Positions 10,278-32,600 of a stretch of 33,937 nt of DNA are shown piece after piece (position 1 is the stretch's first letter; each line of letters opens with the position of its first letter). Below the pieces are notes generated by a model, which was not told the origin of the DNA, did no database searches, and saw only the letters and a list, made by a program, of their open reading frames with translations. The position numbers and the translations under genes were made by a program. Origin of the DNA: an uncultured Myxococcales bacterium (GTDB lineage: Bacteria; Myxococcota; UBA4151); the NCBI GenBank assembly GCA_964013405.1, contig CAXGWI010000025.1, forward strand, positions 1 to 33,937, in the 5' to 3' direction.

Positions 10278-12290
10278 TTACTGATAAGGCCGGGCCTGCT
10301 TCACGAAAAGGGCCGGCTCCTCGCCCGGCAGGCCATCGAATTTGAACTCGACGTCCATGGCCCACCAATTGCCGTTGGTGCCATAGGCCGGTGCGAAGGC
10401 CTGGCGAATCCGGTCCAATGCTTGGCCCAATTGAAAGCGTTGATTGGGGTTCAAGACGGGCTGCCCCCCCAAGGTCAGACTGGAGTTAGAGAGATAGGTC
10501 ACCGGCTGTTCGGCCCGGTCGAAGTAATAGAGGAAGCTATCGGCGGTCACGCCAGCCGGCGGCAACACCACAGAGGTCTCCCCCACCTGCACATTGATAT
10601 AGAAGGCCGGATCCAGGCCCGTGCGATCGAAGGGGTTATTGGTCAGCGCCACACCGTTCGCTTCCTCGTCGGGAAAGGAGCGATGCACCAACAGGGCCAT
10701 CGCAACGGAGAGATGGTCGATGCTGCGATAACTGCGCTCCTCGAAGGCCCGAAAGAACCACACGCTGGCCCAGACCTTCCGGACCGCATCGGCCACAGGC
10801 CGCTCGGGGTCGTTCAAATCAGCACTCTTCGATATGTAGAGACCGGCCCCGGTAAAGCCGTCGAGATCTTCCGCGTTGGTGCTGGAGCGAAATCGCATGC
10901 GGATGTTGGGATAATCCCGCTGCAACTTGGCGATCAACGCCGCTTCAAAGGCCGGATCGAGGGGCGCCGCCTTCATGTCCTCCCGCAGCTGCCCCAAGGC
11001 CTGATCTCGGTAGGCCGGATCCTGCTGGAAATCCCGATCCTCGAGCAAGGCCTCCACCCGTGCTGTGAAACCGTTGTCCTCCATGAACTGGAGATAGAAA
11101 TGAACCGGCACGGCAAAAGCCTTGGGCACCGGCAAGCCCTCGATCTGGGAGAGGGCGGCGTAATGGGCTGCTTTGCCCCCAAAGGCCCGGGTTGCGACCT
11201 TCACCGAGTCTTTCAAGTCGGGATGATCGGGGGCCAAGACGGCCTCGATATCGGTGAGTTCGACCACCTCTCGGTCCAGGCCCGGTACTTGAACGGACTG
11301 GGGCTTATTGGCTTCCCACCAGGCATCGGCTTCATCGGCCGAGACCGCCGCCACCGTGTAGCCCTCGCTGGCGACCCCAAAGCGCACCCACTGGCCCTCC
11401 AGGGCCCGCAACGCTGGGTTCTGAAAGGCCCCTCGCAGCGCCATGTTCGGTGTGCCCCGGTTCCTCGACAACACATTGATGTGAGACAAGGGCGTCTGGA
11501 AAGCCTCCGTGATGATCCCGCTGACCACGGAGATGTCATTGGGGACCTGGTCGAGGACCACCACATCCCGAAAGCCCAGATACTCCGTGGCGAGCGACTC
11601 GGCCGTGGCAAAGCGTAGGCGCCCGTAACTCTCCGCAAGATTCAATGGCTGGTAGTCGATCCCGGCAAAGAGTTCCGCTTGGGTGATGAGATTGAGGGCC
11701 TCCTCCTCGCCCCGCACGGTCACCTCAACGGCGGCCGAGCTGGCAAAGAAGCGGAGGTTCTCGCCGAACCAAGTCGCAGCTTTGATGTCCCCATAGGCTG
11801 AGAGAATCAGATCGACGCTCGCCTGGTCATAGGGGGCGATCTCATAGGTGTAGACGTCGGGCCCCTCGTAATGGGTCACCGCACCCAGCAAAAAACGCCG
11901 ACTGGGCGAGCTGTACTCGGTGGTATTGAAGTCGGCGAGGAGCGGGACCACGGGCAAGGCCCCGCCACTGAGCTGTTCCGAGGCAAAGGCCCAGTGGATC
12001 GGGTAGCGTTCACTGTGCTGAAAGTAGAGCCGGTCCTGATCGTAGCGATCGATGACCGTTTTCACGGAACGAGCGCCTGGGATGCTGGCGTCGGCCGGGA
12101 CCGAAGCCAGGCGGTGAAAATCCTCAAGACAGCCGAGTTCATGAAGAAAGTCGGGCACCTCGCCACCGTGACGGCAGGACCAAAGTGGCACCCCATCCCC
12201 ATCGGTGGACGAACACCCCATATTCGAGACGAGCGCGACGAGGGCGATCAAGGCCCCAGCAACTGGCCCTCTAGTCGTCCTGACAGACAT
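10278..12290 (-). CDS. PPDK/PEP-synthase-type dikinase with phospho-His domain and C-terminal ATP-grasp domain, predicted lipoprotein
   Basis: GIITEAFQTPLSHINVLSRNRGTP (His-domain pattern), FGGKAA, RFRSSTNAEDLDGFTGAGLY, VWASVW, DVEFK and FVKQARP. Start placed at MSVRT, followed by a hydrophobic stretch and NMGC. Confidence 0.85.
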   Translation of the reverse strand: MSVRTTRGPVAGALIALVALVSNMGCSSTDGDGVPLWSCRHGGEVPDFLHELGCLEDFHRLASVPADASIPGARSVKTVIDRYDQDRLYFQHSERYPIHWAFASEQLSGGALPVVPLLADFNTTEYSSPSRRFLLGAVTHYEGPDVYTYEIAPYDQASVDLILSAYGDIKAATWFGENLRFFASSAAVEVTVRGEEEALNLITQAELFAGIDYQPLNLAESYGRLRFATAESLATEYLGFRDVVVLDQVPNDISVVSGIITEAFQTPLSHINVLSRNRGTPNMALRGAFQNPALRALEGQWVRFGVASEGYTVAAVSADEADAWWEANKPQSVQVPGLDREVVELTDIEAVLAPDHPDLKDSVKVATRAFGGKAAHYAALSQIEGLPVPKAFAVPVHFYLQFMEDNGFTARVEALLEDRDFQQDPAYRDQALGQLREDMKAAPLDPAFEAALIAKLQRDYPNIRMRFRSSTNAEDLDGFTGAGLYISKSADLNDPERPVADAVRKVWASVWFFRAFEERSYRSIDHLSVAMALLVHRSFPDEEANGVALTNNPFDRTGLDPAFYINVQVGETSVVLPPAGVTADSFLYYFDRAEQPVTYLSNSSLTLGGQPVLNPNQRFQLGQALDRIRQAFAPAYGTNGNWWAMDVEFKFDGLPGEEPALFVKQARPYQ

Positions 12291-13377
12291 TCTCGGCCCC
12301 AGGCGTCGGCACGTCGCCGTCTTCATCAATGCTGCAGGCCTCGCCCTCAGCCCGATAGGCACTGGAGGCGGTGAGCCCATTGACTAAGGTCTCACCATCG
12401 CTCCCTAGGAGTTCAGCCACACTGCCATCGGCGAGGTCGACGATGGCCTTATTGTTGTCCAACACCAAGTAGCCGCCCCCCGGGACGGAGGCGAACTCAA
12501 GCCCCCGAATAGAGGCCAGTTGGGTGGAGCCCCGACGCAGGGCCCCCGTCGTTTCAAAGATACGGAGATAGCAACCGGAAACATCGGCAGCCTCGGCGGC
12601 AGCGTTGTAGATTTCGAGCCAATCCCCCTGGGTCACACCTTCGACACCACACTTGCTGTCTTTGTGGCAGACCTCGTTCAAACGCAGCCCGAGATGCTCG
12701 CAGGCCGGCGCTGCGGGGCGCTCGCAGGCGCTGGTTTCGAATTGTTTGCAATCGGCAGCACAGGCGAGCCTGCCGCCGGTAAAGCCCCCCAAGGCCTCAC
12801 AAGTTGTCAGGCCTGCGTCACCATCGCAGCGCTCGCCCTCATCCAGCTGGCCATTGCCACAATTCCTGCCCCTATTCTCGCGCCCGAAGGTAGGCTCGCA
12901 GAGGGCCCATTCACCGGCCACACGGCAGTACGAGATCTCGCCGTCACCGGCGCCGTAGGTCACTTGGTCGACCATGGCCAAGTCCTGATTGAGCAGGCTC
13001 ACCGTTTCACCGTCGCCGCTGAGACCAAAGGGGTGCATGCCGACCCCCACCCCCTTGTGGATGACCAAGTAGCCCCCCGGCGCGATCAAGGTACCTGGGG
13101 CGAAGACGAGCTCGCCTTCTTTGCTCGCTGGATCGTAGAGAGCGCCATTCACACCGTGATCGATGTCATCGGTAAGGTACCAGCCGGCCAAATCGACAGC
13201 TTCATCGCCCTGGTTATACAATTCCACCGGGTCCGTTCCGCTGCTCGCGAGTTCATTGATCTGTATCTGAATATCGGCCGGTGTCGGCGGTGGCGGCTCA
13301 GGAGGCGGCTCCGGCTCGCAGCCCGCGGCGAGGGGCAACCCCAGCAACACGAGACAGGCCATGGTCCTTCCTTGCAT
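12271..13377 (-). CDS. Lipoprotein with two lamin tail domains and a Cys-rich linker
   Basis: Lipobox LAAGC. First domain IQINELAS...DPVELYN...VDLAGWYLTD...PTFGREN; second LRLNEV...DWLEIYN...PTPGAEN. Confidence 0.85.
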   Translation of the reverse strand: MQGRTMACLVLLGLPLAAGCEPEPPPEPPPPTPADIQIQINELASSGTDPVELYNQGDEAVDLAGWYLTDDIDHGVNGALYDPASKEGELVFAPGTLIAPGGYLVIHKGVGVGMHPFGLSGDGETVSLLNQDLAMVDQVTYGAGDGEISYCRVAGEWALCEPTFGRENRGRNCGNGQLDEGERCDGDAGLTTCEALGGFTGGRLACAADCKQFETSACERPAAPACEHLGLRLNEVCHKDSKCGVEGVTQGDWLEIYNAAAEAADVSGCYLRIFETTGALRRGSTQLASIRGLEFASVPGGGYLVLDNNKAIVDLADGSVAELLGSDGETLVNGLTASSAYRAEGEACSIDEDGDVPTPGAENVCQDD

Positions 13378-13381
13378 CGCT

Positions 13382-14068
13382 TTACTTCGCCTTTCGTCGT
13401 CGCACTCGATATTGATAGCCTAGTCCCAGAATGTGCTCCACCGGGTCATCGGGGTCCGCGAGGGGGATCTGGGATCGGTAAAACACGCTGTATCGATGGG
13501 TTTTCGTCCCCGGCAAGGACGTCCCCACGGTGAGACGAATCTTGCGCCAACCGTCGTTGCCGGAGACACCGAGGCGGTGGAAGGTCTCCCCAGAAAGCGT
13601 CGGTTCCAGGCCCTGCCAGCCAGGAACAGCCAGAGAGAGCCGAGGTCGAAAGGTCTGGGTGCTTTCAATATCTTCACCGTCGCGCTCGTACTTCTCTTGC
13701 AGTCGTAACCGTAATGCGAGGGCAAGCGGGCCCACCCGGTGTTTGAGTCGGGCCTGCAAATGCAAGCGCTGGACCCGTTCCAACTCGTCCTTCTTCGTCC
13801 GCTCCCACTCCAAACGGTAACCGAGCCCGAGCCGTAGCCACTTCTGCAATCGCCAAGCGCCGGCGAGATCCGAGATGATGCTGTCGGTCTTGGTGAGGTT
13901 TTGGTCCCGGCGAATCTGCTGATCAAAGGTCAAGCTCACCTTTTTCACGGGGCGGTAGCGAAGGCCTCCATTCAACCACAACTGGGCGTCGTTGTTGGCC
14001 ACAGCATCGGTCGCGCCGAACATAGCACCGAGCAAAGCCAGGCTGATCATGGGTTTCAACACGATCAA
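13382..14068 (-). CDS. DUF2490-like outer-membrane beta-barrel protein
   Basis: Signal peptide, DAQLW start, LGLGYR, LRLRLQ, RLTVG and HILGLGYQY strands. Overlaps the stop of the DUF4956 gene; an alternative ATG lies at 14050. Confidence 0.75.
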   Translation of the reverse strand: MIVLKPMISLALLGAMFGATDAVANNDAQLWLNGGLRYRPVKKVSLTFDQQIRRDQNLTKTDSIISDLAGAWRLQKWLRLGLGYRLEWERTKKDELERVQRLHLQARLKHRVGPLALALRLRLQEKYERDGEDIESTQTFRPRLSLAVPGWQGLEPTLSGETFHRLGVSGNDGWRKIRLTVGTSLPGTKTHRYSVFYRSQIPLADPDDPVEHILGLGYQYRVRRRKAK

Positions 14069-14679
14069 TCTCCCGGACAGAAGACCGTTAAACGGACGGT
14101 ATCCCGTAGCAGATCCACTTGCTCCACCTGCACTCGGCGAACATCGAGCCCAGTCCGCTTACGCAAATCAGCGAGGAGCTCCGTTGGGTCCTCCCGCTGA
14201 ACCAACTCCAGGTTGTCGTAAACGATGGCATGGCTTTGGTCCCGACGAAACCAGGTCAGATACTCCAAAGTAAAGGTCAGGCCCGCAATCGCTCCGTTGA
14301 CGAGGAGCAGTTCCCCGAGGCTCACTTTCTTGTTCACCACCGCGTTGAGGATCGCGATACCAATCACCACAAACAAGTAGGTGAGATCCCGAGTCCGAAT
14401 GGGTTCTGTCCGGTAGCGTAAGATGCCGAAGACCGCGAAGAGGCCGAGTGCAAAACCCAGATCGACCGGCACCTTGCGTAAGAGAAAGCAGAGGGAAAAG
14501 GTGATCAGGTTAAACATGAAATACGTGAAGACGTACTCGGTCCGACCATAACGCCGAACGTAGACGAGGAGCACCACGAAGCTCGTGACCAGGAGGTCGA
14601 GGAGCAGACGAGAACCTAGTTTGGCAAAGTCTGCCGCGTCGATGATCGCTTCAGGATGAAGCCCCAGCAGTTCACTCAT
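14065..14679 (-). CDS. DUF4956 family membrane protein
   Basis: GFALGLFAVFGILRYRTEPIRTRDLTYLFVVIGI and IVYDNLELV...LADLRKRTGL signatures. GAGGAG RBS. Confidence 0.88.
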   Translation of the reverse strand: MSELLGLHPEAIIDAADFAKLGSRLLLDLLVTSFVVLLVYVRRYGRTEYVFTYFMFNLITFSLCFLLRKVPVDLGFALGLFAVFGILRYRTEPIRTRDLTYLFVVIGIAILNAVVNKKVSLGELLLVNGAIAGLTFTLEYLTWFRRDQSHAIVYDNLELVQREDPTELLADLRKRTGLDVRRVQVEQVDLLRDTVRLTVFCPGD

Positions 14680-14987
14680 CACTGATCTCCTCGCGGGGGC
14701 TAAAAGGCCACGCTCACGGCACCCAGCGTCCACTGACTACCGCATTTAGGCAAGAAGATCGCTGTATTGCAGGGGCTGGGGATTGAGAAGCAACTCGCCC
14801 TGCCCCCCACAACGCCGGCGATGTGGGGACGGCCACCGACGCGGGCATCTGCGCCGAAGGCCGCTGGTTGGTCCCGGGATGTAGCGAAGGACTGACCCCT
14901 GAATTTACGGCGGGATGTTATGTGCCCTGTGAAGAACCTGGCCTACCCTGCGACGATGGCAGCACCGCCTCTAGCTTCTTTGGCCCC

Positions 14988-26239: not shown

Positions 26240-26797
26240 CTAGCGATCACGGTCCCGTGGGCCCTTGCGGCGACTCAGGGCGATGCCGATAACCAGAATG
26301 CCCGCGAAGAGCATCCACGTGGAAGCGTCCACCGCCTCACAACTACAGCCGACGGCATCACCGGGATCGGGGCTTAGACCGCCATCCACGGGCTGAAGGC
26401 CAGCATCGATAGCCTGACTGCCCCAATCGGCCGGGGCATTCCCCCCATCAACAAGGGGCTCGCCTTCAGGGTAATCATCGGGATCACCGGGATGACTCAG
26501 ATAGGGCCCCGGAGCAGGCTCGCGTGGCTGCCAGGTTCCCGCTGGATCCCCCAGTTCAACACCATTGCTGAAGCCGTCGCCATCCGCATCCCCCTGGGCC
26601 AAGTCAGCCCAATCTCTGCCCGCCTCCCAAAAAGCATCCCCAAAGGAATTACGGGGAGATCCCCCCCCGCTCACATGGCAGGTGTTGCATCGCTGGCTCC
26701 CGGAATTTGGGATCTCGGACATGAAGGGGATTGTCGCCTCGCCCACGCTTGGGACGAGCATTGAGAGGATCAAGATCAAACAGCGCTGCATTGTCAC
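26240..26797 (-). CDS. Secreted CxxCH protein with temptin-like Ca-binding motif and MYXO-CTERM-like tail
   Basis: Signal peptide, IPN...CNTCH...RNSFGDAF...DADGDGFSNGVELGDP, then GCSC, a TM helix and a basic tail (RRKGPR). Confidence 0.75.
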   Translation of the reverse strand: MTMQRCLILILSMLVPSVGEATIPFMSEIPNSGSQRCNTCHVSGGGSPRNSFGDAFWEAGRDWADLAQGDADGDGFSNGVELGDPAGTWQPREPAPGPYLSHPGDPDDYPEGEPLVDGGNAPADWGSQAIDAGLQPVDGGLSPDPGDAVGCSCEAVDASTWMLFAGILVIGIALSRRKGPRDRDR

Positions 26798-28488: not shown

Positions 28489-30132
28489 ATGACTAACGCG
28501 TTTCTTTTCGTGAGCCTTCTCCTGAGCCCCCCCAGCCAAAGCAGCGCAAAGGTGATGGTGCAGCAGGGGGCGACCATCGTTGTCGAAGGTGACGGCGTTG
28601 TCCAATGGCGAATCGGTCTGCCGGTGATTGTCTTTCAACTGGGGGCGGCTACAGCACCTCCCCTGCCACTGGCCGAGGGCCGGGTTCAGGGCATAAGCGG
28701 TCGCAAAGCAGCGATTCGTCTCATCGGTGAAGTGGAAGGGATGAACCTACGCAATCAATGGGTCGCACCCCGCTACATGGTGGAAGCGGAACTCTTCACC
28801 GGCGAGGCCCCAAAGCATCCAGGGCCAGGTGACCAAGCAGACCCTACCGAAGCGACGCAACCGAAACCTCAGGCCTATCACCGCCCGCCAAAGCAGATCC
28901 GTTGGGGGCAGCCCCTCTGGCTTGAGATCACCAGTGATTTCGATTTGAGCGCCGTCAATGCTCACGTTCGCATGGGCCCGGCCGGTGAGTACACGAGCTT
29001 CGCCCTCAAGCCCCGCAAGACGCCGGGCCACTGGTCCGGGTCCAGCCAGTTGGACCTGGGCAAACGAGAGCAGACCTTTGCCCAGTACTTCATCACCGCA
29101 ACCTTCGCCGGCAAAGTCCACAGCGTTGCCGGCAATCCAGCCCACCCGAACAAGGTCGCGGTTGCGAGCGCACCTCGGCGACCCAGCCGGGCGATCATGC
29201 AACACGAGCGCATCAACCGAGCCACCTTTGGCGAGGCGATCGAACTCACCGCCAAAGTGGACCCACGGTTTCAAAAGCCCCAGTTGCACCTACGCATGGC
29301 CGGAGGAGGCACCTTCGACACCCTGGATATGAAACCCTTGGCCCCAGGGATCTTTAATGTCACGGTCCCAGCGGCCAAAATCGTCATGCCCCACTTCCGC
29401 TATTATCTGTCGGCCGAGGACAGCGAAGGTTTGCGGCTACCCGGCTTCGCCAGCGCGGCGAAACCTCACCGAGTGAAAGTAACACGGGGCAAGATCCTCT
29501 CGGCCAACAGCCGCCGCAACCGAATTTCGCTAAGTATGAAGGCTGTCGAAAACGATCCCGTTGACGATCATTATAGCGAACTCAAGATGGGCTATGAACG
29601 GATCTTCTTCCCCTTCCTTCTGGCCCGAGTCGGCTTCTCCAGTGTCACGGGCCGATCGTTACGACTCGACGAAAATGGTGAACTCAAGGGCTCGGACTTG
29701 GAGTTGACCGGGGGCAACGGCGGTATCGTGCTGCAAATCAAACATTACATCAGCCTCTACGGCGACCTTCAAGCCGTCGCCTATCCCGGCGGTTCGGCCT
29801 TCGGTACGAGCTACGGTCTACGCATCGGCGACGATCGGGGGGCAGCCATCGGTTTTGGTTACGGCTCGATGCGGGACGTGGACGACTGGAGCTTCATCGG
29901 CGAGACCGGTGAAGCCTATCTCTCTACCCCCCTGAGCAAGACGCTTCGCCTGACCGGGCGCATCGAGACCGATGACCTCTACCAAGACGCGCAGCGATCT
30001 TTGCGACTACTCATCGAAATCGCCGGCCGAGTTCGGGACCAAGTCGAGTGGAACCTAGAAGCCGGACTCAACACCCGGGACAGCCTCACGACTGGCGGCG
30101 TGGGCCGAGTCCGACTTGGCTGGATTTTCTAG
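28489..30132 (+). CDS. Secreted protein with two Ig-like domains and a probable C-terminal outer-membrane barrel
   Basis: AAGGAG RBS, signal peptide, two similar segments (HRPP..GQPLWLEI..YFITA and HERI..GEAIELTA..YYLSA), Gly/aromatic strands ending RVRLGWIF. Confidence 0.75.
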   Translation: MTNAFLFVSLLLSPPSQSSAKVMVQQGATIVVEGDGVVQWRIGLPVIVFQLGAATAPPLPLAEGRVQGISGRKAAIRLIGEVEGMNLRNQWVAPRYMVEAELFTGEAPKHPGPGDQADPTEATQPKPQAYHRPPKQIRWGQPLWLEITSDFDLSAVNAHVRMGPAGEYTSFALKPRKTPGHWSGSSQLDLGKREQTFAQYFITATFAGKVHSVAGNPAHPNKVAVASAPRRPSRAIMQHERINRATFGEAIELTAKVDPRFQKPQLHLRMAGGGTFDTLDMKPLAPGIFNVTVPAAKIVMPHFRYYLSAEDSEGLRLPGFASAAKPHRVKVTRGKILSANSRRNRISLSMKAVENDPVDDHYSELKMGYERIFFPFLLARVGFSSVTGRSLRLDENGELKGSDLELTGGNGGIVLQIKHYISLYGDLQAVAYPGGSAFGTSYGLRIGDDRGAAIGFGYGSMRDVDDWSFIGETGEAYLSTPLSKTLRLTGRIETDDLYQDAQRSLRLLIEIAGRVRDQVEWNLEAGLNTRDSLTTGGVGRVRLGWIF

Positions 30133-30153: not shown

Positions 30154-30540
30154 CTACTTGAGGGTCATTTTCGTCCAGGCGAAATCACCACAACCTGCGT
30201 TGTCGGGATCGCTATCGTCCACACTCACCTCTTCATTGAGGGCTGCTTCTGCCGTCTCTTTACCGAAGGCGGCGATGCAGTAATAGAAGCTCTCCTCCAC
30301 CGGATCCGTGTAGATAATTTTCGAGTAGGTGCCCGGACTCCACTCGGCATCATCAGGCGTGCGCACGATGACCGTATTGGTGGAAGCGTCCCACTGATCG
30401 ATCGTGTTGGCACCCCAAGCATCCTCAGTGATGGTCTCTTCAGTATCGAAGTTGGTCGACCAGGTCCCCTGCAGGGACTCGTGCTCGGAAGCACAAGCGG
30501 TCAAAAGGGTGAAGGCGAACAGAATTGAAACGATGCGCAT
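30154..30540 (-). CDS. Small acidic lipoprotein of unrecognised family under a cobalamin riboswitch (paralog A)
   Basis: GAGGAGG RBS, lipobox LTAC, core GTWSTNF...GTYSKIIYT...FYYC...GCGDFAWT. Confidence 0.9.
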   Translation of the reverse strand: MRIVSILFAFTLLTACASEHESLQGTWSTNFDTEETITEDAWGANTIDQWDASTNTVIVRTPDDAEWSPGTYSKIIYTDPVEESFYYCIAAFGKETAEAALNEEVSVDDSDPDNAGCGDFAWTKMTLK

Positions 30541-30603
30541 GGGATTCCCTCCTCGAAATCAAAGTCTCGGGGGATCGATGCACAGAGACCACCGCGGCCC
30601 GGC

Positions 30604-30785
30604 ACCACCTCCACCCGAGGCGCTTTTTGCCTACCGCTGCGCACCAGTATCCTGGCTCCCGGTCATCCCCTGCCTGGAACGCCTTCCCAACACGCTATGG
30701 CGTCAGTGGCATCTGTCCCGAGGGTCCCGGTTACAGTTGCGGGGGCAGCGTCGGTGTCACACCGACTTCCTGGCCCGCAGCGGCT
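30604..30785 (-). promoter_or_regulatory. Cobalamin riboswitch, copy 1
   Basis: Minus strand reads AGGAAgtcGGTGtgacaCCgacGCTGCCCCCGCAACTGTAA...GCCACTG...GGGAAGGC...GAGCCAGGATAC. The closing stem is CCGCTGCG/CGCAGCGG. A downstream hairpin CGCCTC-GGGTG-GAGGTG has a loop complementary to TGCCC. Confidence 0.93.
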
Positions 30786-30791
30786 GAGGAG

Positions 30792-30820
30792 CCCTTAAAA
30801 GATCATGCGTTCAGTTGCAA
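30792..30820 (-). promoter_or_regulatory. Putative sigma70-type promoter of riboswitch copy 1
   Basis: TTGCAA-N17-TAAGGG just upstream of the first riboswitch stem. Both boxes are identical in copy 2 while the spacer has three changes. Confidence 0.55.
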
Positions 30821-30828
30821 GCCCGACC

Positions 30829-31350
30829 TCAGTCAGAGACTCGGGTCAAAAGGGTCCAGCCGAAGTCGCCGCAGCCCCGCTCAGCAGGGTTCTCCGCGTT
30901 CGCGATCGCTTCATCATTAAGCGCCTCGCTGGCCGTCTCCCGCCCGAATGCGATCTCGCAAACGTAGAAGCCGTCAACCGTGCGCCCCTCGACAGAGACG
31001 GGAGCTAACTCCGTGTAGACGAGCTTGGAATAGGTCCCCCGATTCCATTCGGCATCTTCGGGCTGCCGGACGACGACGATCCGGTCCGCTGCAAGCCAGG
31101 TATGGATGGACTTCCCATCCCAACGCTCCTGAGTGATCGTCACGGTGGTACCGAAATTTGTGCTCCAATCGCCCAACAGGTTCGTTGGGCCATCCTCCAA
31201 CCGACAATTCCGATCGCAGCCGTCCCCATCTTGCTGGTCGCCGTCGTCACATTCCTCGGTATTGAGCCAGACATCACCATCGCCACAGACGGGATCCCCA
31301 CCACATGCGGTTAGAGATGAGAGAAGAATTAGCCAAAGCCAAAAACGCAT
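30829..31350 (-). CDS. Lipoprotein paralog B under a cobalamin riboswitch, with one DUF4215-type repeat
   Basis: Lipobox LTAC, CGDGDVWLNTEECDDGD...CDRNC, then a core about 50% identical to 30154-30540 by hand alignment. Confidence 0.9.
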   Translation of the reverse strand: MRFWLWLILLSSLTACGGDPVCGDGDVWLNTEECDDGDQQDGDGCDRNCRLEDGPTNLLGDWSTNFGTTVTITQERWDGKSIHTWLAADRIVVVRQPEDAEWNRGTYSKLVYTELAPVSVEGRTVDGFYVCEIAFGRETASEALNDEAIANAENPAERGCGDFGWTLLTRVSD

Positions 31351-31416
31351 CACAAGACCTCACCGGTCGTTTGTCTGAACGGGAGCGGTGCACCCCAAGG
31401 TTCCAAGGAACCAGGC

Positions 31417-31598
31417 ACCGCCTCCACCCGAGACGTGGTTGCCAGACCGCTGCGCACCAGTATCCTGGCTCCCGGTCATCCCCTGTCTGGAAGGCATTCC
31501 CAACACGCCATGGTGTCAGTGCCATCTGCTCCGAGGGTCCCGGTTACAGTTGCGGGGGCAGCGTCGGTCTCACACCGAATTCCTGGCCCGCAGCGGCT
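31417..31598 (-). promoter_or_regulatory. Cobalamin riboswitch, copy 2 (variant core)
   Basis: Same architecture as copy 1 (GCTGCCCCCGCAACTGTAA, GAGCCAGGATAC) but GGCACTG...GGGAATGCC replaces GCCACTG...GGGAAGGCG. Confidence 0.88.
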
Positions 31599-31604
31599 GC
31601 GGAG

Positions 31605-31633
31605 CCCTTAAAAGGCCATGAGTTCAGTTGCAA
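31605..31633 (-). promoter_or_regulatory. Putative sigma70-type promoter of riboswitch copy 2
   Basis: TTGCAA-N17-TAAGGG, conserved with copy 1. Confidence 0.55.
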
Positions 31634-31640
31634 GCCCGGC

Positions 31641-32600
31641 CTAGGGAGCCATGAGCGCGTTCACCGCAGCCACCCAGTTTGCGTGGTTAGACTGGCCGGC
31701 TTCGGCGCATGTGTCGGTGTGGACGTAGGTGAAATCTTGACCATCGAGGACGATGATCAGCGGCAGACCGTAGGTTCCGGCTAAGCAGGCATTGACCCAG
31801 CCCCGATTTTCGCCACGAAAATCGCCGTAGAGAATCTCCTTAAAGCTGACCTCTTGACCATTGGGCGTCCGACCACTGTCCATCAGCGTCCGGGCCGGAT
31901 CTAAGCCTTTCGACCGGGCGTAATTGAGACATTGGGCCTGGGTCGGTGGGACTCGAGCGTTGGTCTCTCCCAGAACATAATAAGCATTGAGGTTCTCCGC
32001 ACCCAAGCGCTGGACGTTGCCTTCGATGTCAGGAAGCGCTTGGTCACAGCCCGGGCACCACTCGGTCGAGAGCACCACCAGTTGGGCTTTCGTCGTGCCG
32101 CAGGATTGGTGGAGACTCACCGTCTCGCCATTGCAATTCGTCAACCGCAGGTCCTTGAGGCGGTCGCCAATGGAGTTCCCCTCCCCATCGGTAAGGCAGC
32201 CGTCGGGACGACCGCTGCCGCCGCCACCGCCACCGCCCTGATCATTCACGCGGCAGGCGTTGCTACAAGCATCATCGTCAACGGTATTGCCGTCGTCACA
32301 GGCCTCGCCGGGATCGAGACGCCCATCGCCGCATCGAGGCCCATCCTCTTCTTCCGTGCACCGGTGATCGCAGCCGTCGCCATCGCGACGGTTACCGTCA
32401 TCGCATTCCTCATCTGGATCCACGTTCCCATCACCACACAGCGGCTCCTCATTTCCCCCCTGGTTGCCACCGCCAGGATCCAACTGCTCGCCGCTATTGG
32501 AATCGGCGGCCCGCTGCCCGATCTGCCCCGTGCCGTCGGAATCATCGGGTATGCAGCCAACCAAAAGGCCAATCAGCGCAAGGTGAACGGAGATTCTCAT
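31641..32600 (-). CDS. Lipoprotein with two DUF4215-type repeats and a thioredoxin-like (TlpA-type) domain
   Basis: Lipobox LVGC, two CGDG...CDDGN units, poly-Gly linker, IGDRLKDLRLTNCNGETVSL, STEWCPGC and GLPLIIVLD. AGGAG RBS. Confidence 0.88.
   Translation of the reverse strand: MRISVHLALIGLLVGCIPDDSDGTGQIGQRAADSNSGEQLDPGGGNQGGNEEPLCGDGNVDPDEECDDGNRRDGDGCDHRCTEEEDGPRCGDGRLDPGEACDDGNTVDDDACSNACRVNDQGGGGGGGSGRPDGCLTDGEGNSIGDRLKDLRLTNCNGETVSLHQSCGTTKAQLVVLSTEWCPGCDQALPDIEGNVQRLGAENLNAYYVLGETNARVPPTQAQCLNYARSKGLDPARTLMDSGRTPNGQEVSFKEILYGDFRGENRGWVNACLAGTYGLPLIIVLDGQDFTYVHTDTCAEAGQSNHANWVAAVNALMAP

Follow-up and report, generated by a model that had tools for sequence, protein, structure and literature searches.

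Riboswitch-controlled lipoproteins with a predicted lipocalin-like domain in marine Myxococcota and their possible role in B12 capture

The window examined here, a 33,937-nucleotide (nt) stretch of an uncultured Myxococcales bacterium (assembly GCA_964013405.1, contig CAXGWI010000025.1, positions 1 to 33,937), holds two small lipoprotein genes, A and B, each behind its own cobalamin riboswitch. The two proteins share a domain of about 105 amino acids (aa), termed domain X, that is predicted to form a lipocalin-like barrel and that recurs behind cobalamin riboswitches in other Myxococcota. X very probably has a role in B12 scavenging, and we lean towards the reading that A and B are B12-repressed accessory capture lipoproteins that would bind corrinoid directly.

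Results

Both leaders clearly exceeded the RF00174 gathering score of 31.5 bits in Rfam. Aptamer A (30645-30772, minus strand) scored 86.1 bits (E 4e-20) and aptamer B (31438-31624, minus strand) 74.3 bits (E 1e-16); by alignment to leader B, aptamer A extends to about position 30810. This pair gave the sole Rfam family-level matches in the window. The two riboswitches named in the initial annotation are therefore genuine, and each lies, as described there, directly 5' of a small lipoprotein gene with an LTAC lipobox, with start codons on the same strand 105 nt (A) and 88 nt (B) downstream of the aptamers. Elsewhere in the 3.9 Mb host genome (94% complete) no RF00174 match was found among the 150 of 358 first-look candidates that were scored, and the leader as blastn query returned nothing beyond its two known copies and a fragment of 23 nt.

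The leaders are 87% identical over 321 aligned columns. Leader alignment and folding revealed a P13-like hairpin of 6 bp with a GGGUG loop 3' of aptamer A (30606-30622, minus strand), for which a competing longer helix lies downstream, and a P13-like hairpin 3' of aptamer B (31419-31435, minus strand). A candidate promoter, TTGCAA-17 nt-TAAGGG, was recognized by eye in both leaders (30792-30820 and 31605-31633, both minus strand), the copy of B overlapping the Rfam envelope of its aptamer; a sigma-70 scan reported no sense promoter and did not pick up this candidate. Because hairpin and promoter candidate are common to both leaders, A and B each look like a unit of their own. No terminator was found in either leader, and accessibility of the ribosome-binding site barely shifted between ON and OFF folds (0.37 vs 0.51 for A, 0.48 vs 0.49 for B).

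Gene A (30154-30540, minus strand) encodes a 128-aa lipoprotein (LTAC, Cys16) in which a single X domain (aa ~22-127; 30160-30477, minus strand, from alignment and structure model) follows the lipid anchor almost directly. Gene B (30829-31350, minus strand) encodes a 173-aa lipoprotein (LTAC, Cys16) with a Cys-rich acidic stretch ahead of its single X domain (aa ~57-170). Residues 21-54 of B (31189-31290, minus strand) match the TIGR02232/DUF4215 Cys-rich acidic repeat at 37.6 bits (cut-off 20.8), and this repeat is likely a spacer between lipid anchor and X domain. The lipobox +2 residues of the two proteins are Ala and Gly. The X domains are 48% identical over 113 aa (BLASTP, E 5e-35). All aromatic motifs listed at first reading were recovered in the translations together with the one Cys pair, C88 and C117 of A, which is invariant in 431 aligned family domains. 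Within the genus, an orthologue of A with 83-86% identity stands behind its own riboswitch, and one genome has A and lacks B at the syntenic place. Metagenome reads matching the locus were marine. Marine metatranscriptome contigs covered A in three of three runs and part of B in one, although contigs cannot prove transcription; the flanking genes were not covered, and contigs cannot rank expression.

To place these genes in context, X was searched in 401 Myxococcota genomes and found in 45. In 34 of the 45 the first X domain had an RF00174 match over the cut-off on its own strand, no more than 800 nt upstream; the count rose to 36 with two sub-threshold matches and to 39 within 6 kb. Among four X genomes without a switch, three had X at contig edges, and in the fourth a divergent switch lay 1.9 kb off and preceded a TonB receptor. 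In the class to which the window belongs, all 7 RF00174 matches (6 genomes) precede X. A total of 80 metagenome loci were also collected, several of them near-duplicates; three loci without a called X open reading frame (ORF) were dropped. Of those with at least 1.2 kb of upstream sequence, 41/47 had a switch match within 1.2 kb, 33 of them strong, in a scan with a sequence-only model built from 26 of the X-linked switches. The association spans at least 13 families beyond that of the window and several switch sequence subtypes, in which kin are not independent. Artefact or chance adjacency was rejected: with 1-3 switches per genome of 3-11 Mb, we estimate a probability of ~1e-4 per gene for a switch within 800 nt. 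The tie to an upstream cobalamin riboswitch thus holds for most homologues as well as for A and B.

The genes next to X also pointed to B12 uptake. At 42 genome loci the neighbours included a lipoprotein termed Y (28 loci), a TonB receptor (12), a propeller lipoprotein (5) and a BtuF-type binding protein (4); of the 80 metagenome loci, 53 had Y and 14 a receptor. In two proteins X and Y are fused. No cobalt transporter and no cbi/cob gene was present among 74 scanned neighbours. Y has no Pfam model and no PDB sequence match, and it matches NF033170 (LIC_13355 family) below the cut-off, with E ~1e-10 to 1e-14. The model of Y, with a predicted local distance difference test score (pLDDT) of 87, had a single match under E 0.001, BtuG1/BtuGH 8BLW_B (E 3.6e-5), with BtuH2 7BIZ at rank 9; by these matches the modelled fold of Y is BtuH-like. 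Overall, 179 of the 401 genomes encode Y, among them 43 of the 45 with X. Methylmalonyl-CoA mutase was found in 39 of 40 X genomes tested, and CbiC in 0/45 X genomes vs 26/401 overall.

A full HMMER search recovered 503 X family representatives at E<=0.001. Among 261 proteins the domain was present once in 153, twice in 65, three times in 26, four times in 15 and five times in 2. Long stalks, acidic or flexible, are common, and a lipobox-like motif was found in 172 of 219 database proteins. One sequence, P0004, looked chimeric and was left out of the alignments. Beside the invariant C88 and C117, positions G25, W42, W/Y77, A100, D108, G116 and W122 are nearly invariant, and no conserved His or Met was seen. 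The family had been called unrecognised. It is so in Pfam, where X has no match at E<=0.01, and in the PDB, where nothing fell under E 0.4 by sequence, but a distant relationship to the uncharacterised NCBIfam family NF047669 (LIC13354 family exoprotein) was detected. A matched this model at 27.8 bits (E 2.7e-6) and B did not; the best relative reached 95.9 bits, and family members had E up to 3e-27. As all tested scores lie under the 130-bit cut-off, X is, on sequence, a homologous superfamily of NF047669 and not a member.

The best matches to NF047669, P0149 and P0175, look spirochaetal in sequence. Four further proteins (P0193, P0221, P0223 and P0226) each contain the X domain three or four times; three of them carry proline-rich stalks, and at least two have an N-terminal membrane helix without a lipobox. 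P0193 keeps all four of the aromatic positions described below. The architecture of these four is eukaryote-like, with a possible transfer to microalgae. In the ESM Atlas A matched only hypothetical clusters under 0.9, with nothing usable for P0193. Viral contigs held no locus for X or P0193, and plasmids held none for P0149.

The AlphaFold2 model of the X domain of A (123 sequences; pLDDT 91, predicted template modelling score 0.82) predicts a compact 8-stranded antiparallel lipocalin-like barrel of 113 residues with up-and-down strand order. Comparison with 48,161 chains by VIA-align placed Treponema pallidum Tp0751 (pallilysin, PDB 5JK2) first (Z 9.5, root-mean-square deviation 2.8 A, 91 aligned), with lipocalins, avidins and designed barrels next at Z 5-7; nearly all top rows were calycins. 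Foldseek returned nothing at E<=0.001 and only weak avidin and lipocalin rows. The lipocalin GxW motif is present in strand A (G25 in 99%, an aromatic residue at position 27 in 99%), and the lipocalin basic residue of strand H is found as K/R124 in 61%.

Judging from the strand order of the model, F31 (loop AB), W67 (loop EF), F92 and F120 (loop GH) would face the open barrel end. Across the family, 84-90% of members have an aromatic residue at these rim positions. Of 66 domains from riboswitch loci, 64 had at least three of the four aromatics, compared with none of 12 domains of switch-less paralogues, which stem from only four proteins, two of them orthologues, and so are not 12 independent losses. 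Core aromatics were kept in 11 of these 12 domains.

Identity of X with known Btu proteins was considered. BtuJ/DUF4465 was rejected on the lack of a Pfam match at E<=0.01 and on the model, a barrel and not a jelly roll; BtuG and BtuK were rejected because X has ~105 aa and 8 strands and is not a seven-bladed beta-propeller. Neither the fold nor the sequence of BtuH was among the listed matches of A and B; it is the neighbour Y that matches BtuH. BtuG, BtuH and BtuJ were not among the matches listed in either X structure search, which does not exclude them. The predicted fold of X looks unlike that of BtuB, BtuF, BtuG, BtuH and BtuJ, in agreement with the first impression that A and B do not resemble BtuB, BtuF or BtuG.

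The genome of the host (G000) encodes three PF02310 B12-binding proteins with open frames of 128, 1153 and 1220 aa, which, read from size only, would be a mutase subunit, an IcmF-like protein and MetH. It also encodes a PduO-type adenosyltransferase, and no MetE, CbiC or CobS was found in it. With B12-using enzymes present and these three not found, the host likely depends on imported complete corrinoid. A CobS gene was seen in a same-genus genome (G005:C47:7808-8512) and not in G000-G003.

In a sister genus the operon runs riboswitch, X, Y, TonB receptor, propeller. In the host this operon is scattered: Y is a stand-alone BtuH-fold lipoprotein gene on contig C23 (G000:C23:17965-18747, minus strand), and a TonB receptor and a propeller-like lipoprotein gene lie on C20 between recF- and dnaN-like genes (G000:C20:25031-27867, plus strand). 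No riboswitch was detected at either place. The C20 receptor is compact and highly diverged (594 aa, 33% identical to that of the sister operon), and its orthologue in G002 is Pfam-negative; the two C20 genes are likely a constitutive btuB-btuG-like pair. The initial annotation saw no TonB receptor in the window, and none was present among 28 selected ORFs scanned against Pfam (90 ORFs listed); the absence of BtuB from the neighbourhood is confined to those scanned ORFs, but a btuB-like receptor and a BtuH-like gene are encoded on other contigs. In this genome only X has kept the switch, and doubled it. As Y and the receptor have no detected riboswitch, X would be the only B12-tuned part.

Further X paralogues occur in the same genome. 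One, without a switch (G000:C61:9661-10320, plus strand), has the signal peptide and Cys repeat of B and a changed C-terminal motif. In a quick tree with many open forks, A, B and the C61 paralogue form one clade, with B sister to C61. Coding identity between A and B (50% aa, four-fold sites saturated) is far below that between A and its orthologue (86%), yet the aptamers of the two pairs are about equally alike (91% and 92%), and switch B may therefore be a later copy or homogenised. A 590-aa lipoprotein with five diverged X domains (G000:C22:23913-25685, plus strand) has no riboswitch and has lost the rim aromatics; it is possibly a repurposed X array. This gene follows a beta-lactamase-family gene and precedes menB/aroC-like genes, and it has an orthologue in G005:C19 (L093:5556-7394). 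A His-rich membrane protein, MerC-like by look, is encoded 1.1 kb upstream of the C61 paralogue, and a further B-like N-terminus lies at G000:C117 ~721-876.

Other genes of the window were also inspected. Convergent on gene A is a gene for a 547-aa secreted protein (28489-30132, plus strand) that has no Pfam match, is kept in the same genus and ends in an alternating pattern with a terminal Phe, like an outer-membrane barrel. Another lipoprotein gene (31641-32600, minus strand) has its end 8 nt ahead of the candidate promoter of B; its product combines two Cys-rich repeats with a thioredoxin-like domain (AhpC/TSA, WCPGC) and could handle disulfides of Cys-rich envelope proteins. Farther away are a run of DUF4956, DUF2490, lamin-tail and PPDK_N-like genes (10278-14733, minus strand) and a Temptin_C protein with a tail that is myxosortase-like by look (26240-26797). 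At X loci of other genomes, two riboswitch loci of G075 encode a Rieske [2Fe-2S] protein after X (L091:6504-6941 and L092:2293-2730), a single TAA splits the X array of L091 into 2+1 domains, and molybdate/tungstate-type ABC transporter genes lie downstream of riboswitch-X in G060 (L073:5288-7595).

Discussion

The capture reading that we favour would work as follows. At low intracellular B12 the switches would open and A and B would be made and lipid-anchored in the envelope, A held close to the membrane and B lifted by its Cys-rich spacer. Corrinoid would be caught at the aromatic rim of the barrels and handed on to the BtuH-like Y, the BtuG-like propeller and the BtuB-like receptor for uptake. 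B12 repletion would shut X off, so that X would serve as extra capture capacity when B12 is scarce. Arrays of one to five domains on long acidic or flexible stalks would suit capture by avidity. An aromatic rim has parallels: BtuH and BtuJ are reported to hold the corrin by aromatic residues (PMC13616437; PMC12751083), along with side-chain hydrogen bonds and without burying the cobalt face (PMC13616437; PMC12751083; bioRxiv 2025.08.21.671476), and Tp0751 is reported to bind heme with a dissociation constant of 11.7 uM, docked at the rim (PMC7521688). Scavenging from prey, as first suggested, was unsupported.

Several observations weigh against direct capture. Among the listed matches of X, whether by fold or by sequence, there is no solved B12 binder, and its Z of 9.5 to Tp0751 is modest; Tp0751 itself is described as having no discernible pocket (PMC5040251). 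BtuL and BtuK2, both products of B12 operons, reportedly did not bind cobalamin (PMC12751083). The two cobalamin switches reported for Leptospira interrogans (count from PMC3493377) precede btuB and LIC20135, not LIC13354 (PMC3953431). Leader folding gave no picture of how the switch closes the ribosome-binding site, the loss of rim aromatics draws on the four switch-less proteins noted above, and the lack of CbiC is statistically weak, as the base rate of 26/401 predicts ~3 genomes. X nearly always co-occurs with Y, Y occurs without X, and the X-Y complex prediction weakly favours a partner role.

The last two points suit the main, though rather unlikely, alternative in which X itself binds no corrinoid and is a structural partner or adaptor that positions, stabilises or multimerises Y near the receptor, with the rim as a protein interface. 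The adjacency and fusion of X and Y agree with this, as do LIC13354 and LIC13355, which are numbered neighbours and are both reported to be ~3.7-fold up in host-like chambers (PMC3953431); the closed barrel of Tp0751 has likewise been proposed to act by protein contacts (PMC5040251). The complex prediction gave weak support, with a median of 0.36 vs 0.00 for the best control (partner pLDDT at least 84), and its runs agree in at least 0% of contacts. Of 157 solved pairs, 116 reach the mark for such predictions, as do 2 of 215 mismatched ones, but at 0.60 or below it is reached by only 18 solved pairs and by both mismatches; the predicted pair was, however, non-cognate (Y of G002 with A of G000). 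In the host, X is doubled and B12-switched and the Y of C23 has no detected switch, so that X and Y levels look uncoupled. Y also works without X in most genomes, and the eukaryote-looking X arrays keep the aromatics and have no Y domain in the sequences read. The partner and capture roles need not conflict, provided that X delivers B12 to Y.

As BtuL and BtuK2 illustrate, belonging to a B12 operon is no proof of binding, and a role for X that is only indirect was therefore considered. X would then be an envelope protein induced by B12 starvation for vesicle release or for adhesion, whether to particles or to cells that produce B12, binding neither corrinoid nor Y. Vesicle release is the precedent set by BtuL (PMC12751083), an adhesin function is described for Tp0751 (PMC5040251), binding to plasminogen and host matrix is reported for LIC13355 (PMC11891782), and long stalks and tandem repeats are adhesin-like as well. 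We regard this as improbable, given that the fusion to a BtuH fold and the place of X between receptor and BtuF genes point to the uptake path and that the rim aromatics track the riboswitch. Least probable by our estimate is that X binds cobalt, a small precursor or another ligand, such as heme or a free lower-ligand base, for example dimethylbenzimidazole (DMB), in place of complete corrinoid. Cobalamin riboswitches do control cobalt transporters too, as reported for cbtA/cbtB in L. licerasiae (PMC3493377), a lipocalin barrel is well suited to small hydrophobic ligands, Tp0751 offers the case of heme (PMC7521688), and the conserved Asp residues D51, D108 and D111 could bind metal. Yet CbiC was not found in any of the 45 X genomes, nor CobS in the host, so these cells would be unable to turn cobalt or a free base into B12, and neither a conserved His or Met nor a cobalt or cbi/cob neighbour was seen. 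The cobalt binding raised in the initial annotation is thus unlikely.

Accessory lipoproteins in B12-switched uptake loci are known already from Bacteroides. The direct-capture reading would make A and B resemble BtuG, BtuH, BtuJ, BtuK and BtuL of B. thetaiotaomicron, which are reported as lipoproteins in cobalamin-riboswitch loci with BtuB and BtuF (PMC13616437; PMC12751083). Both sets have a stalk-plus-head design, and X loci have a BtuH-fold neighbour and often a propeller lipoprotein. They differ in fold, X being predicted to form a lipocalin-like barrel whereas the B. thetaiotaomicron proteins are propellers (BtuG, BtuK), the BtuH globule and the DUF4465 jelly roll. X is moreover found in Myxococcota, is often tandem-repeated and stands here alone behind its own switch. 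With Tp0751, X shares GxW in strand A and a lipoprotein design with a disordered stalk, but identity is 9%, and the GCGxFxW motif and the invariant, disulfide-type Cys pair set X apart. A common fold shows no common function: Tp0751 binds a tetrapyrrole (heme) and is without a B12 link. In Leptospira the likeness extends to both partners, with detectable homology of X to LIC13354 (NF047669) and kinship of Y to the LIC_13355 family (NF033170). No function or B12 link for LIC13354 was found in main texts of the open-access literature, and the main text of the LIC_13355 paper (PMC11891782) does not mention B12 or cobalamin.

A lipocalin-fold B12 accessory lipoprotein was not found in open-access PMC/bioRxiv main texts. 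The same literature had nothing on Myxococcota with a cobalamin riboswitch and only the DUF4465 paper for BtuH with Myxococc, and a 2026 review contains no occurrence of 'lipocalin', 'Myxococc' or 'Leptospira'. As a tentative and rather doubtful extension, X may represent a new class of B12-binding domain, the first with a lipocalin fold, carried singly or in tandem at the head of stalked lipoproteins in B12-dependent Myxococcota and in spirochaetes (LIC13354 kin). Eukaryotic microbes would have adopted it, in the membrane-anchored P0193, P0221, P0223 and P0226 with their aromatic rim intact, as a means of catching B12 distinct from CBA1.

B12 is limiting for marine microbes, and which of them capture it, and by what means, is still to be settled. 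Capture with the help of lipoproteins has been described mainly for gut Bacteroidota, and in a marine class of Myxococcota the sole B12-switched gene product is the ~105-aa, disulfide-closed X. If the capture reading is true, the known B12 binders would gain a new fold, and the LIC13354/LIC13355 gene pair of Leptospira could be assigned a function. Should the eukaryote-looking copies prove algal, X would be a candidate second B12 acquisition protein in phytoplankton.

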